A DNA stretch of 36,614 bases from a virus: the IMG/VR virus record IMGVR_UViG_3300018026_000029; one strand, given 5' to 3'. The notes beneath the pieces were generated by a model. The model was not told where the DNA came from, did no database searches, and saw nothing but the letters and a program-made list of their open reading frames with translations. The stretch's first letter is position 1. Every line of letters begins with the position of its first letter. Shown here piece after piece: positions 30,731-34,124 of the stretch. The position numbers and the translations under genes were made by a program.

Positions 30731-31954
30731 TTACCACGTCTCCACTACCATAGTTCCCACGAAGTTCGTGGCCTGACCGCTGGTAGCAGACGCAAGGTTT
30801 CCGACGTAAACATAGAACGTGCCCGAAGACATGTCTATGTTCGTGTCCCTGGTGGCGGCATTGTATGAGCTTCCAGCAAACGGCGTGCCGTTGACTACCA
30901 TGGACACTATGTTGGAGCTGGAGCCCAGGACGTCGATAATAAACTCGAAGTAGTTTTCCCCAGCCCATAGGCCAGGCCCCGTGTTCGAAGCACCTAGTAT
31001 AGTGGTGTAGGTCGTATTGTTATTGTACTGGCTGTAGGCGTAGAACTCCCCGCTGCTGGGTATAGTCATCCCTAAGGTATAGCCATGCCCGGACGTGGAC
31101 GTGGCGTCCTTGGATACGTATAGGTCGTAATAAACGTAGGTGGCATTATAGACCATGTTCCAAGTCCACCTGATGCGGATGCGCTTGAACCCCGTGAAGC
31201 CCTGTACCGACTGATACAGGTTCGTGCCGGAGAAGAAAGTTGCCGGGGAGTTCCAGGTTATAGCAGTCTCGGTGTAGCCTGATACGTGGCCGCTAGGTCC
31301 AGTGTATCCGGTATAACCAGTGTAACCTGTGTATCCGCTATACCCCGTGGCCCCGTACCCGGTATAGCCTGTGAAGCTCCCTGGGCCTGTGTAGCCGGTG
31401 TACCCCGTCCCTCCTGGCCCCTGCTGGCCAGTGTAGCCTGTGAACCCTGTGTAGCCGGTATAGCCTGTGCCCCCAGGGCTTGCAGGGCCTGTGTAGCCGG
31501 TGTATCCTGAATATCCGGTGTAGCCAGTGTATCCCGGTCCTGTGTAGCCCGTGTAGCCGGTAGCGCCAGGACCGGTATATCCTGTGTAGCCTGAGTACCC
31601 TGTGTAGCCGCTACCACCGATGTAGCCGGTGTATCCAGAGTAGCCTGTGAAGTTCCCAGGTCCCGTGTATCCTGTGTAGCCTGTGTAGCCTGAGTAGCCA
31701 GTGTAGCCGGAATAGCCCGTGAAGTTCCCTGGTCCCGTGTAGCCCGTGAACCCAGAATAGCCAGTGTAGCCAGAATAGCCGCTGTATCCGGTGTAGGCCC
31801 CGGTCCCCGTGTACCCTGTGTAGCCTGAGTATCCAGTGAAGTTGCCCGGACCTGTGTAGCCTGTGTAGCCAGAGTACCCCGTGTAGCCTGAATACCCCGT
31901 GTAGCCGGAATATCCGGTAGGGCCTCCGGGAGTGATAACGACGTTCTTGGCCAT
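30731..31954 (-). CDS. Fibre-like protein: about 215 aa of collagen-like Gly-Tyr-Ser/Thr triplets followed by a ~180-aa C-terminal globular domain.
   Basis: 'GYSGYTGYSGYTGYSGYTGYTGPGNFTGYSGYTG...' has Gly at every third residue. The C-terminus is Tyr/Asn/Thr-rich, typical of receptor-binding tips. Confidence 0.7.
   Translation of the reverse strand: MAKNVVITPGGPTGYSGYTGYSGYTGYSGYTGYTGPGNFTGYSGYTGYTGTGAYTGYSGYSGYTGYSGFTGYTGPGNFTGYSGYTGYSGYTGYTGYTGPGNFTGYSGYTGYIGGSGYTGYSGYTGYTGPGATGYTGYTGPGYTGYTGYSGYTGYTGPASPGGTGYTGYTGFTGYTGQQGPGGTGYTGYTGPGSFTGYTGYGATGYSGYTGYTGYTGYTGPSGHVSGYTETAITWNSPATFFSGTNLYQSVQGFTGFKRIRIRWTWNMVYNATYVYYDLYVSKDATSTSGHGYTLGMTIPSSGEFYAYSQYNNNTTYTTILGASNTGPGLWAGENYFEFIIDVLGSSSNIVSMVVNGTPFAGSSYNAATRDTNIDMSSGTFYVYVGNLASATSGQATNFVGTMVVETW
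31280..31930 (-). repeat. DNA-level tandem 9/18-bp repeats encoding the G-Y-[ST] triplets of the fibre gene.
   Basis: Reiterated 'gtagccngtgta(g/t)cc' words are visible by eye along the whole interval. Confidence 0.7.
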
Positions 31955-31971
31955 CTCTGCTTAGGGCCCCC

Positions 31972-32715
31972 CTATTTGCTTATCACGAACATCCCCTGCC
32001 CGTACGTGCTCGTGCCGCCAGAGTTGTTCCTAATATAGGTCTGGATTTGCCCGACCTCGCTGGCCAAGGACTGCGCGTAGCACAGCCCGCTCGGGGTAGC
32101 CTTCCCACCTATGCCGCTCTCGTTGGGCAGGGCGGTGAACAGGCTCGTAAGGCCGCCGAAGGACGACGGGGTCCACGAGGGGTTGCTAAACCCGCCGTTG
32201 AAGTACCATTCCGTGGTGATTATGTAGTATGCGGGGCTCGGGTAGCTGACGTTCGCCCAGTACAGCGTCCCGTAGGCATAGGCGGCCAGGGTGGGGAAGG
32301 CTGCCGGGGTCCAGCTATAGACGGCCGACGTCCCCTGAATCTCAATCACCGCGCCCACGTTCCAACCGTACCCGCCGACGTTATAGGGGTAGGGCCAGGC
32401 CGCGGACGGGAACACCCATGCCTTGCCGTCGCCCGCCTGCACTATCCTGGTGCCGAGGTTGCACCCGGTGCTGGCCCCCGTGCCGTACGAGGGGGTCGAG
32501 GCCGTTACCGTCACGCCGCTGGGGAGCGGCGTCGTCGTCAGGGCAAGGCCGCTCCATATCGCTATGAAGAGGAGCGTGTCGCCCACTGTCGGGGTGCTGC
32601 CGAGGTTGACCGTGATGTTGCCGTTGAAGTTGAGAGCGCCAGCGGACTGGACCAGGACTGGCGTGGTCACATGCCTCCCGTACATCCCTGCGAGGATATG
32701 GGGCGCGTATGGCAT
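31972..32715 (-). CDS. 247-aa fibre-associated protein (distal tip, assembly or chaperone-like).
   Basis: 'MPYAPHILAGMYGRH...' begins at an ATG that overlaps the upstream fibre-gene stop (TAATG at 32713–32717). It is Ser/Thr/Gly/Tyr-rich. The ORF-track 566-aa version is an out-of-frame artefact extension through the repeat DNA. Confidence 0.55.
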   Translation of the reverse strand: MPYAPHILAGMYGRHVTTPVLVQSAGALNFNGNITVNLGSTPTVGDTLLFIAIWSGLALTTTPLPSGVTVTASTPSYGTGASTGCNLGTRIVQAGDGKAWVFPSAAWPYPYNVGGYGWNVGAVIEIQGTSAVYSWTPAAFPTLAAYAYGTLYWANVSYPSPAYYIITTEWYFNGGFSNPSWTPSSFGGLTSLFTALPNESGIGGKATPSGLCYAQSLASEVGQIQTYIRNNSGGTSTYGQGMFVISK

Positions 32716-34124
32716 TATGTCTTGGACCAGCTCCCCGACAGCACGAACGCCGTCCAGTGGTTCGATGCATCGCAGACTATGCCGATGGCATCGCCGGCCG
32801 CCCCGGCCGAGGCGAGCGTCCCGGCAGAGGAGCCGTTCACGCCGTACAGGGCGGCGGTATTGGAGGCCGCCATCTGGATGGTCATCGCCGACGTGATTCC
32901 CGCGTAGTTGGCATAAATCCTCTGCATCCCCGCCGTGCCCGCAGGGGCATCGAAGGTGATGGTGCCGTAGTTGTTGAAGATGTAGTAGTCCACCCCGCCA
33001 GGGTCCGCCACCGGCCCTGCCGTGCCCTGGACGAGGGTAGGGACGGCGGATATGGAGGCACCGACAGGGCCAGTATAGCCGGTATAGCCTGAATATCCCG
33101 TGTAGCCTGAATAACCTGTGTAGCCTGAGTATCCTGTGTAGGCTGTGTAGCCAGTGTAGCCAGTGAAGCCCGTGAAGTTCCCAAGGCCGGTGTATCCCGT
33201 GTAGCCTGAGTAGCCCGAATACCCTGTTATGCCTGGACCTGTGTAGCCTGTGTAGCCTGTGTAGCCTGAATAGCCTGTGTATCCTGAGTACCCACTGTAG
33301 CCTGTGTATCCCGAATAGCCCGAATAGCCTGAGTACCCAGTGAAGTTCCCAGGGCCGGTGTAGCCTGAATACCCCGTGTAGCCGGTCTGGGGGACGCCCA
33401 GGGCTATGGCGGAGGGGCGCTCCTCCAGCACGATGCCCTCTGTACCCGAGACGGCGAACAGGATGGGGTTCTGGAAGCTGGTGAGGGCCACGGGGGCGCT
33501 TATGGACAGCAGCCCAGGGGTGGCATCGCTGACGAAGTAGTAGTCGCCGGGGGACAGGCCGCTGAGCCCGGACATCGCACCGCTCGTCCAGGCGTTGAAG
33601 TTGTCGGCGTCCACGTAAGAGACAATGGCACTGCCCAGGGTATCGGCATTGTCGGCGCAGGCCAGGTCCCACCTGCTGCCGTCGTAGTAGATGGCCTGCC
33701 CTGTGCTGAACCCGTGCCCCGGCTGGTGTACGGGGAGGTAGGTGCCTGCGCTGGCGGCAGAGCCGGTGTAGCCGGTATAGCCGGTGTACCCAGTCCCTCC
33801 CGGCCCGGTGTAGCCCGTGAACCCGGTGTAGCCGGAGTAGCCTGTCCCGCCAGGACCAGTGTAGCCGGTATACCCGGTGTAGCCGGTGCCTCCGGGTCCC
33901 TGCTGCCCCGTGTAGCCGGTGTAGCCTGAGTACCCGGTATAGCCAGTGCCTCCCGCCCCTCCCGTTATAAACGAGGGGTCTAGCTTGCCGCCCGGGCCGA
34001 GGACGGGCACCTTGCCTGCATCGCCGCCGCCGGCCGAGGACGTGACCGCGCCCGCCAGCGTCTCCCGGTAGGGGCCGCTGGGGTAGGGAAGGGTTCTGCT
34101 GGGAATCTCGAAGGCGTCCGCCAC
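32715..34124 (-). CDS. Second collagen-like fibre protein (paralog): two G-Y-[ST] triplet tracts separated by a ~120-aa globular insert, then a C-terminal domain.
   Basis: GTG start with AGGAGA 5 nt upstream. Triplet tracts at aa 57–122 and 246–353 ('GTGYTGYSGYTGYTGQQGPGGTGYTGYTG...'). Insert: 'TYLPVHQPGHGFSTGQAIYYDGSRWDLACADNADTLG...'. Confidence 0.7.
   Translation of the reverse strand: MADAFEIPSRTLPYPSGPYRETLAGAVTSSAGGGDAGKVPVLGPGGKLDPSFITGGAGGTGYTGYSGYTGYTGQQGPGGTGYTGYTGYTGPGGTGYSGYTGFTGYTGPGGTGYTGYTGYTGSAASAGTYLPVHQPGHGFSTGQAIYYDGSRWDLACADNADTLGSAIVSYVDADNFNAWTSGAMSGLSGLSPGDYYFVSDATPGLLSISAPVALTSFQNPILFAVSGTEGIVLEERPSAIALGVPQTGYTGYSGYTGPGNFTGYSGYSGYSGYTGYSGYSGYTGYSGYTGYTGYTGPGITGYSGYSGYTGYTGLGNFTGFTGYTGYTAYTGYSGYTGYSGYTGYSGYTGYTGPVGASISAVPTLVQGTAGPVADPGGVDYYIFNNYGTITFDAPAGTAGMQRIYANYAGITSAMTIQMAASNTAALYGVNGSSAGTLASAGAAGDAIGIVCDASNHWTAFVLSGSWSKT
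33066..33389 (-). repeat. DNA-level triplet-repeat tract 2 of the second fibre gene.
   Basis: Reiterated 'gtagcctgtgtagcc' and 'gtatcc' nonamers. Confidence 0.65.
33759..33956 (-). repeat. DNA-level triplet-repeat tract 1 of the second fibre gene.
   Basis: Reiterated 'gtagccggtgtagcc' words. Confidence 0.65.

Follow-up and report, generated by a model that had tools for sequence, protein, structure and literature searches.

Tyrosine-rich collagen-like tracts in a probable virion-fibre cassette of a large uncultivated phage, and its apparent diversification by recombination within the tracts

The viral DNA record IMGVR_UViG_3300018026_000029 of IMG/VR (36,614 nt, referred to here in its entirety as the window, whose numbering is used throughout) carries on its minus strand two genes for proteins with long collagen-like tracts, B and A, and a third gene, M, between them. 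We consider it likely, with a probability of about 0.7, that the three genes B-M-A form a virion-fibre cassette of a large uncultivated phage, the fibre being most probably a tail fibre, and that this cassette is diversified by recombination within the tracts. The tracts consist of Gly-Tyr-Ser/Thr triplets whose DNA is no more repetitive than the peptide demands, and closely related contigs carry alternative forms of gene A, all with breakpoints inside the tract. Relatives are cited below by locus labels (L) and protein labels (P).

Collagen-like tracts of genes A and B

Both open reading frames (ORFs) that an earlier inspection of the DNA letters (the original prediction) had assigned to fibre proteins were recovered on the minus strand. 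Gene B (32715..34124) starts with GTG and encodes 469 amino acids in five parts, i.e., an N-terminal domain (aa 1-54; 33963..34124), a first tract of GY[ST] triplets punctuated by GPGGTG and GQQGPGG (aa 55-123; 33756..33962), a middle globular domain (aa 124-245; 33390..33755), a second GY[ST] tract punctuated by GPGNFT, GPGIT and GLGNFT (aa 246-357; 33054..33389), and a C-terminal domain (aa 358-469; 32715..33053). Gene A (30731..31954) starts with ATG and encodes 407 amino acids: eight N-terminal residues, a single tract (aa 9-224; 31283..31930) in which about 60 Gly-X-Y triplets form nine runs separated by GPGNFT-type interruptions, and a C-terminal domain of 183 residues (aa 225-407; 30731..31282). 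As predicted, the tract lengths are unequal: the single tract of A spans about 214 aa, whereas the two of B have 69 and 112 aa. The 247-aa gene expected between them at a TAATG overlap, M (31972..32715), was confirmed by the junction sequence ACATAATGCC, in which the ATG of M overlaps the TAA of B; 17 nt separate the stop codon of M from the start of A. Two other ORFs in this region, of 566 aa in another frame of the minus strand (31972-33672) and of 286 aa on the plus strand (32047-32907), were rejected as Arg/His/Leu-rich by-products of the repeats and the high G+C content. A scan for promoters and terminators revealed nothing exceeding shuffle expectation.

Triplets were counted in uninterrupted Gly-X-Y runs of at least three. 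Position X of the 60 triplets of A held Tyr in 42 cases, Pro in nine and Phe in two, and among the Y residues Thr (33) outnumbered Ser (15) and Gly (8). The two tracts of B gave 54 triplets, with Tyr (37) or Pro (6) in X and Thr or Ser in 41 of the Y positions, so that overall Tyr occupies about 70% of X positions and Thr or Ser about 78% of Y positions. Runs of 3-12 triplets alternate with recurrent punctuation, i.e., GPGNFT, GPGGTG and GQQGPGG. The long runs with Gly at every third residue and Tyr in X therefore hold as originally described. Both proteins exceeded the gathering threshold of the Pfam Collagen family PF01391 (27.2 bits), A with 50.9 bits and B with 36.8 bits. Neither had Pro-rich X and Y positions or, as Scl2 has, charged or polar residues in their stead; Tyr dominates X, and Thr/Ser dominates Y. 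In bacterial collagen-like proteins, X is most often Pro and Y most often Thr (review PMC8968730), so the Thr/Ser in Y is ordinary and the Tyr in X is the unusual feature; the description of these tracts as unlike canonical Pro-rich ones is right for X, but not for Y.

PHROG tail-fibre families also matched A and B (E down to 1e-27), mainly via the repeat tracts, while searches of their globular domains against Pfam and PHROG gave no match. Together with the lectin-like model of the A C-terminal domain described below, the Pfam and PHROG matches support the assignment of A and B as fibre genes with a collagen-like stalk. Their description as paralogs applies to the tracts, which are alike, but the N-terminal, middle and C-terminal domains have no detectable similarity; a C-terminal domain common to A and B was sought by comparison and rejected.

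The interruptions of the tracts are nearly always Asn-X-Thr, in the forms GPG-NFT, GP-NIT, GP-NVT and GLG-NYT (e.g., at 31840-31857 of the window, and in P0002 and P0008), and are strongly conserved across otherwise unrelated proteins. They resemble an N-glycosylation-type sequon, and may be a mere Gly-to-Asn, Tyr-to-Phe variant of GYT.

The tracts had also been described as encoded by near-perfect 9-bp DNA repeats, and this could not be upheld. At period 9, Tandem Repeats Finder reported only 62-69% matches, neighbouring 9-nt units were 56-63% identical, and the 47 GY[ST] units of A were spread over 28 distinct 9-mers; perfect period-9 runs did not exceed 22 nt in A or 31 nt in B. As a null model we used synonymous-codon shuffles that leave the protein unchanged. 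The longest exact repeat in A was 20 nt, compared with 20.2 ± 3.4 nt in the shuffles, and the fraction of identical codons at lag 3 was 0.39, compared with 0.40. Codon autocorrelation at lags of 3-31 codons did not rise above the shuffles, so that neither recent homogenisation nor a higher-order duplication was indicated. Because the shuffles give the same values, the DNA periodicity is only what the peptide repeat imposes, and it provides little substrate for slippage.

The tyrosine-rich repeat is not confined to this cassette. A search with A matched 748 database proteins, and 116 of the 120 top matches contained at least ten G[YF][ST] triplets; many of these 120 shared the motif GPGNFTGYTGYTG and had many different terminal domains. 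Cluster look-ups of the matches yielded none that was informatively named. Back-translated GYT-GPG-NFT-GY was found in 92 IMG/VR stretches, as against five in 185,579 bacterial and archaeal species genomes, and all five were contigs of metagenome-assembled genomes. A full-text literature search on the repeat string found no description of it, only degenerate-primer strings, and this variant of the repeat appears to be undescribed, though common in viral metagenomes.

Alleles of gene A and the fibre slot

Exact look-ups of A, M and B led to 23 loci from many metagenome samples. Over the cassette, most of them match the window at 99.4-100% identity, and the alignments have no gaps in A, M or B. 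The 407-aa A protein was identical on at least 13 contigs, B was 469 aa long in every related contig with a complete B, and the near-identical contigs (99.4-100%), which number more than 20, showed no indel in 9-bp unit steps.

Against this background, gene A occurred in further forms. In the 126-kb ENA contig L019 it encodes 488 amino acids: nucleotides 1-391 are identical to A, an additional 243 nt (27 triplets, 81 aa) follow, and the last 830 nt have four mismatches to A. A 46-mer specific for the junction retrieved the JGI contig L120, in which the same allele had been assembled independently with both junctions covered. The 488-aa allele holds 44 nt absent from both the 407-aa allele and the 398-aa allele described next, and is therefore not a simple chimera. 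In L003, A encodes 398 amino acids. Its identity to A of the window extends over 391 nt, and that to the 488-aa allele over 593 nt; beyond this stretch it has a different tract and an unrelated C-terminal domain, and is followed by an extra gene of 288 aa. Synteny returns after this gene, in the 262-aa flank gene, at only 91% DNA identity. L119 encodes a mosaic A protein of at least 903 aa, with a proximal tract 93% identical in DNA to that of the 488-aa allele and other domains beyond it, followed downstream by three small tip-like genes. The contigs L020 and L023 stop exactly at the divergence point (31564). All allele breakpoints fall inside the A tract, in which the breakpoint zone spans nucleotides 391-411 of the gene (31544..31564).

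As to how the 243-nt indel arose, a simple deletion between perfect direct repeats was considered and rejected: the junctions are not clean, and a 20-nt near-repeat is wrongly spaced. Nor are M and the extra 288-aa gene of L003 cognate homologues, as they have no similarity.

The repeat-number polymorphism that the original prediction had called for was therefore found in part, as length alleles of A in related contigs, but with no 9-bp-step changes and a B of constant length. Recombinational length variation is represented by the in-frame 243-nt allele and the swaps of C-terminal domain, and slipped-strand variation finds no counterpart in such degenerate DNA. Judged by the alleles compared, the variation of gene A appears to arise largely by recombination rather than slippage.

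The three tip-like genes of L119 lie in tandem (2714-4770 of its reverse complement) and encode 257, 210 and 175 aa. Two of them open with a conserved N-terminal peptide, NLSNTTPAAP..VNVTWQNDSSTPPN[IV]S.YVP, which also starts P0124 and P0127, i.e., standalone homologues of the lectin-like C-terminal domain of A. It may serve to dock alternative tip proteins.

M also varies, in a hypervariable patch recognised by contig comparison (codons 202-209; 32090..32112). In L019, L020 and L023 GIGGKAT is replaced by GYGLPTYT, with a gain of one residue, and other contigs carry single-nucleotide polymorphisms at the second positions of codons 206 and 209. This 15-nt patch does not look like a target of a diversity-generating retroelement, its changes being mostly G-to-C or G-to-T and not adenine-specific. 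Pfam detected no reverse-transcriptase domain in the eleven larger ORFs of the window, in a search not aimed specifically at a template repeat.

More distant relatives show how the cassette is assembled. In L024, the globular domains of B, the C-terminal one included, are about 90% identical, whereas tract 1 exceeds that of the window by about 25 aa and tract 2 falls short by about 22 aa. Its gene A keeps the N-terminus but not the C-terminus, and its tract is about 310 aa long; it ends in a copy of the B middle-domain family (52-54% identity) and another small domain. This locus is also syntenic for M, whose sole homologue, P0122 (59% identity), has the same start/stop overlap. The copy of the B middle domain in A of L024 is one of two indications of exchange between A and B, an idea raised in the original prediction; the other is the longest exact A-B DNA match, of 28 nt, a length reached in only 2% of shuffles. 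Any such exchange would be weakly marked and old.

The cassette occupies a slot between two conserved genes. Upstream lies a 161-aa gene (34161..34646, minus strand), which is 63-65% identical in L038, L074 and L085 and precedes the fibre cassette there too. Downstream lies a 262-aa gene (29844..30632, minus strand), which is 35-40% identical in L046, L074 and L085 and, in these loci and L003, always follows the fibre cassette. Between the conserved flanks of L074, L085 and L038 the fibre genes differ from B-M-A, and the only part of B conserved is its N-terminal 55 aa, at 52-62% identity. From the alleles, and from conserved flanks that enclose differing fibres, we conclude that the locus is a hypervariable fibre slot with mosaic boundaries within the tracts.

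Between the 161-aa flank homologue and the fibre cassette of L074, a 140-kb IMG/VR relative, there is a Cys-rich 143-aa ORF on the opposite strand (4756-5187), which by eye looks like an HNH endonuclease (...DHDHSCC...CRRCN).

Megablast of positions 28000-36614 against 50,697 phage records gave no match, nor did tblastn of the A C-terminal domain, M and the repeat tract against phages, in which the tract query was masked as low complexity, and queries with M and the A C-terminal domain found no relatives in IMG/VR. A word-index search with the middle domain of B yielded nothing beyond a fragment of B.

Predicted domain structures and alternative explanations

The C-terminal domain of A had seven representative homologues among 1.84 billion cluster representatives. 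In these proteins it is always C-terminal and ends in VETW, while the N-terminal parts are varied. It was modelled as a concanavalin-A (ConA)-like lectin fold, known in some phage receptor-binding domains, with likenesses to galectins, CBM66, the CBM2 of the phage J-1 Dit protein and the galectin domain of an adenovirus fibre; its matches in BFVD were ConA-like proteins and phage minor tail proteins. In this model, A has a distal domain with a fold of receptor-binding type, and the domain varies between relatives; the most economical reading is that it would be a carbohydrate-binding receptor tip.

In an AlphaFold2 model of the whole B protein, only the middle domain was confident (predicted local distance difference test score, pLDDT, 73-83). 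Foldseek found no significant match for it in the PDB, the best being capsid decoration/cement proteins (E 0.03); sequence homologues are P0002, P0037, P0061 and gene A of L024. The C-terminal domain of B was modelled as all-beta at low confidence (pLDDT about 45-50). The N-terminal domain, conserved in the distant relatives, is a probable virion-attachment anchor.

M matched no family in Pfam or PHROG. Its N-terminal part resembles domains that are fused to GYT tracts elsewhere, at 33% identity over 84 aa in L074 (E 1e-7) and 30% over 112 aa in P0079. On account of this likeness, the translational coupling to B and the hypervariable patch, M is probably an exposed fibre-associated structural or adhesin subunit, and not an enzyme or chaperone.

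In the mechanism that we propose, the cassette fills the slot between the two flank genes, and each fibre protein consists of globular modules strung on Gly-Tyr-Ser/Thr collagen-like tracts, which most likely form trimeric triple-helical stalks. At the collagen rise of 0.286 nm per residue, the stalk of A would be about 61 nm long, that of the 488-aa allele about 84 nm, and those of B about 20 and 32 nm. B would be anchored to the virion via its conserved N-terminus, the lectin-like tip of A most likely binds a glycan on the host surface, and the synthesis of M would be translationally coupled to that of B. As every tract contains the same peptide motif, crossovers between tracts would be in frame and structurally neutral. 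A crossover would change the length of the stalk and swap the distal tract, the tip domain and the accessory genes, and could in this way diversify host recognition.

The points that weigh against the fibre-cassette reading concern both the alleles and the proteins. All of the alleles come from short-read metagenome assemblies of related sample series, and the 398-aa allele was seen on a single contig; these points, and the contigs L020 and L023 that break exactly where the sequences diverge, would be expected if the alleles were assembly artefacts across the repeats. We regard this as very unlikely, because exact repeats within the A tract do not exceed 22 nt, i.e., they are shorter than typical final assembly k-mer sizes, because the 488-aa allele occurs in independent ENA (L019) and JGI (L120) contigs and has 44 nt of its own, and because L003 has syntenic flanks on both sides, the downstream one at the 91% identity that would befit a real divergent lineage. 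Breakpoints may also cluster in the tract because selection keeps the proximal end conserved and the distal end variable, and not because recombination is more frequent there. Still less probable is a slipped-strand contingency locus, in which frequent changes by 9-bp units would cause rapid length or phase variation. The 9-nt period of the amino-acid repeat and the single 3-aa (9-nt) step by which B differs from B24 would suit such a mechanism, but it is largely refuted by the divergence of neighbouring units and the short perfect runs (at most 22-31 nt), both like those of synonymous shuffles, by the lack of unit-step indels among the near-identical contigs, and by the changes themselves, all of which are in-frame blocks or replacements. 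With DNA repeats as degenerate as the choice among synonymous codons permits, this is not a slipped-strand contingency locus, and recombination within the tracts remains the preferred reading.

For the proteins, the triple helix is our inference from a Pro-poor, Tyr-rich tract that AlphaFold2 monomer models leave at pLDDT below 30, and host-guest peptide work attributed to Persikov and colleagues (2000) reportedly placed Tyr in X among the least stabilising residues. The PHROG tail-fibre matches of both proteins are driven by the repeats, the A model is moderately confident (pLDDT 71), and ConA-like folds are found very widely. It is possible, though we think it unlikely, that the GY[ST] tracts form no triple helix but a trimeric beta-solenoid, a polyglycine-II-type bundle or a Tyr-rich disordered or cross-linkable elastic linker, the Pfam match then reflecting the Gly periodicity alone. 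Such structures would accommodate the scarcity of Pro (in X of only 9 of the 60 triplets of A and 6 of the 54 of B) beside the dominant Tyr, the short runs interrupted by conserved GPGNFT, GPGGTG and GPNIT, and the failure of AlphaFold2 to yield a structure; no solved structure has such a repeat, and sequence matches in the PDB align through Gly only. A collagen-like stalk is favoured by the strict Gly-X-Y phase over about 60 triplets, by the Thr in Y that is typical of bacterial and viral collagen-like proteins, by a layout of tract followed by C-terminal globular domain that is the same as in established collagen-like fibres, and by the collagen-like tail-fibre proteins of E. coli O157:H7 prophages described in PMC3368898. 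Similarly doubtful is the broader idea that the GY[ST] tract with its GPGNFT / GPN[IV]T punctuation is a structurally distinct, almost virus-exclusive fibre module. Such a module could be a Pro-poor triple helix stabilised by tyrosines that stack between the chains, or a trimeric fold other than collagen; its Asn-X-Thr interruptions could be hinges or glycosylation sites; and uncultivated phages, jumbo phages among them, could use it as a universal in-frame recombination adaptor with which to exchange receptor-binding tips and set fibre length. Finally, the cassette does not lie in a recognisable tail or baseplate module, its neighbours encoding an RNA ligase, an acyl-carrier-protein (ACP)-like protein, a CCA-adding enzyme and a protein resembling the major vault protein (MVP), so that the tail assignment rests on analogy. 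A and B might instead be other virion or cell-surface fibres, such as jumbo-phage capsid fibres or decoration whiskers, with an indirect role in receptor recognition. We give this only a minor share of the probability. Besides the location, the nearest matches of the B middle domain and the adjoining MVP-like gene, which could encode a shell-type protein, point in that direction; against it, the Foldseek matches are not significant, the A tip resembles baseplate and receptor-binding lectin domains, and allelic tip swapping is typical of receptor-binding proteins.

Genome context and comparison with known fibre systems

The window has a G+C content of about 64% and was 100% identical to the 51-kb ENA contig L007/L018 across the 6,615 nt compared (30000-36614). 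Relatives were found on the 126-kb contig and on two IMG/VR contigs, of 140 and 317 kb, the last two sharing the flank genes. The MVP-like gene (34769-36614, minus strand) has Pfam MVP_shoulder and Vault_3 domains and runs off the end of the window; in L007 it encodes 810 aa, and the protein is 39-40% identical to an 809-aa ORF of the 462-735-kb huge-phage records LR756500/501/503. From these matches, the relatives on large viral contigs and the phage-type polyvalent-protein and GP88 domains encoded nearby, we conclude that the element is a large uncultivated phage. In some related contigs the MVP-like gene is shorter (523 aa) or broken in two (538+267 aa), and upstream of the cassette in L007 and L018 are genes for the RNA ligase and a PP-binding (ACP-like) protein.

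Elsewhere in the window, four consecutive giant ORFs on the plus strand (3243-21053) encode 887, 1822, 1073 and 2144 aa. The 1073-aa protein has an ART-PolyVal ADP-ribosyltransferase domain and the 2144-aa protein ends in a GP88 domain; these polyvalent-protein-like products may be injected effectors. A 349-aa ORF (21487-22536, minus strand; 317 aa in related contigs) had a weak PHROG match to major head proteins (E 3e-5) and may be the capsid gene of the phage. The window also encodes an NTP_transf_2 protein (154-900, plus strand), a nucleotidyltransferase of the CCA-adding/poly(A)-polymerase type with PolyA_pol and RNA-binding domains (24446-25894, minus strand), and three small proteins (about 27409-28545, plus strand), two of which (130 and 118 aa) have He_PIG Ig-like domains according to the identical contig L001.

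Among known fibres, the long tail fibre of phage T4 is encoded by consecutive genes, gp34-gp35-gp36-gp37, for a proximal rod, a connector and a distal rod with a receptor-binding tip. It resembles B-M-A by analogy only, with no kinship in sequence or fold, and the T4 rods are beta-structured. By that analogy, we hypothesise that the gene order B, M, A could mirror the physical order of the proteins. The BclA protein of the Bacillus anthracis exosporium, reportedly described by Sylvestre and colleagues in 2003, is said to have GPT repeats, whose triplet number varies by strain and sets the length of the filament, ahead of a globular C-terminal trimer domain. Like the proteins described here, BclA has Thr in Y and a tract followed by a C-terminal beta-sandwich domain; it differs in having Pro rather than Tyr in X and a TNF/C1q-like tip rather than the ConA-like tip modelled for A, and in being a bacterial spore protein. 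In the collagen-like proteins of E. coli O157:H7 prophages, tail-fibre domains flank the tracts, and a triple helix forms without hydroxyproline; they differ from the proteins described here in their triplet composition, which has no Tyr-X bias, and in having shorter repeats and flanking domains of other families. Their collagen-like tracts, too, lie within prophage-encoded proteins (PMC3368898).

Collagen-like repeats also separate the antireceptor domains of S. thermophilus phages (PMC5601072). The antireceptors or tail-fibre proteins of S. thermophilus and lactococcal phages likewise have Gly-X-Y tracts between globular domains, as the work of Duplessis and Moineau (2001) is summarised in PMC5601072, and the tracts bound variable regions, are proposed recombination hotspots and undergo natural deletions, as cited for phage Sfi21 in PMC7242381. 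In comparison, the tracts described here, at about 70-300 aa, are far longer; they are rich in Tyr instead of Pro or charged residues, carry the conserved GPGNFT punctuation, and belong to a large uncultivated phage. Collagen-like repeats are discussed as recombination hotspots in PMC7242381, where an 81-nt in-frame deletion in the collagen-like gene ORF8 of the Guarani virophage accompanies a change of host range; between them, PMC7242381 and PMC5601072 describe such repeats as determinants of host range in phages and a virophage. Both cases represent natural in-frame changes of length by repeat units in a collagen-like gene; in ORF8 there are five 27-nt repeats and the evidence is experimental, whereas here a 243-nt indel and swaps of whole domains are deduced from metagenomes.

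That phage fibres can have collagen-like stalks, and that these serve as points of recombination, was already known. What appears to be new is a tyrosine-rich, proline-poor class of the repeat with hundreds of members, strongly enriched in viruses. If the tract does form a triple helix, it would challenge the usual rules of triple-helix stability, and would be of interest for the design of collagen-like biomaterials, in which the tyrosines could be cross-linked. The four forms of gene A, with DNA-identical proximal tracts and differences in stalk length and tip, constitute a clean natural allelic series. With this series, the notion that the tract acts as a recombination adaptor can be put to a direct test, and the series could also guide the modular engineering of receptor-binding proteins.

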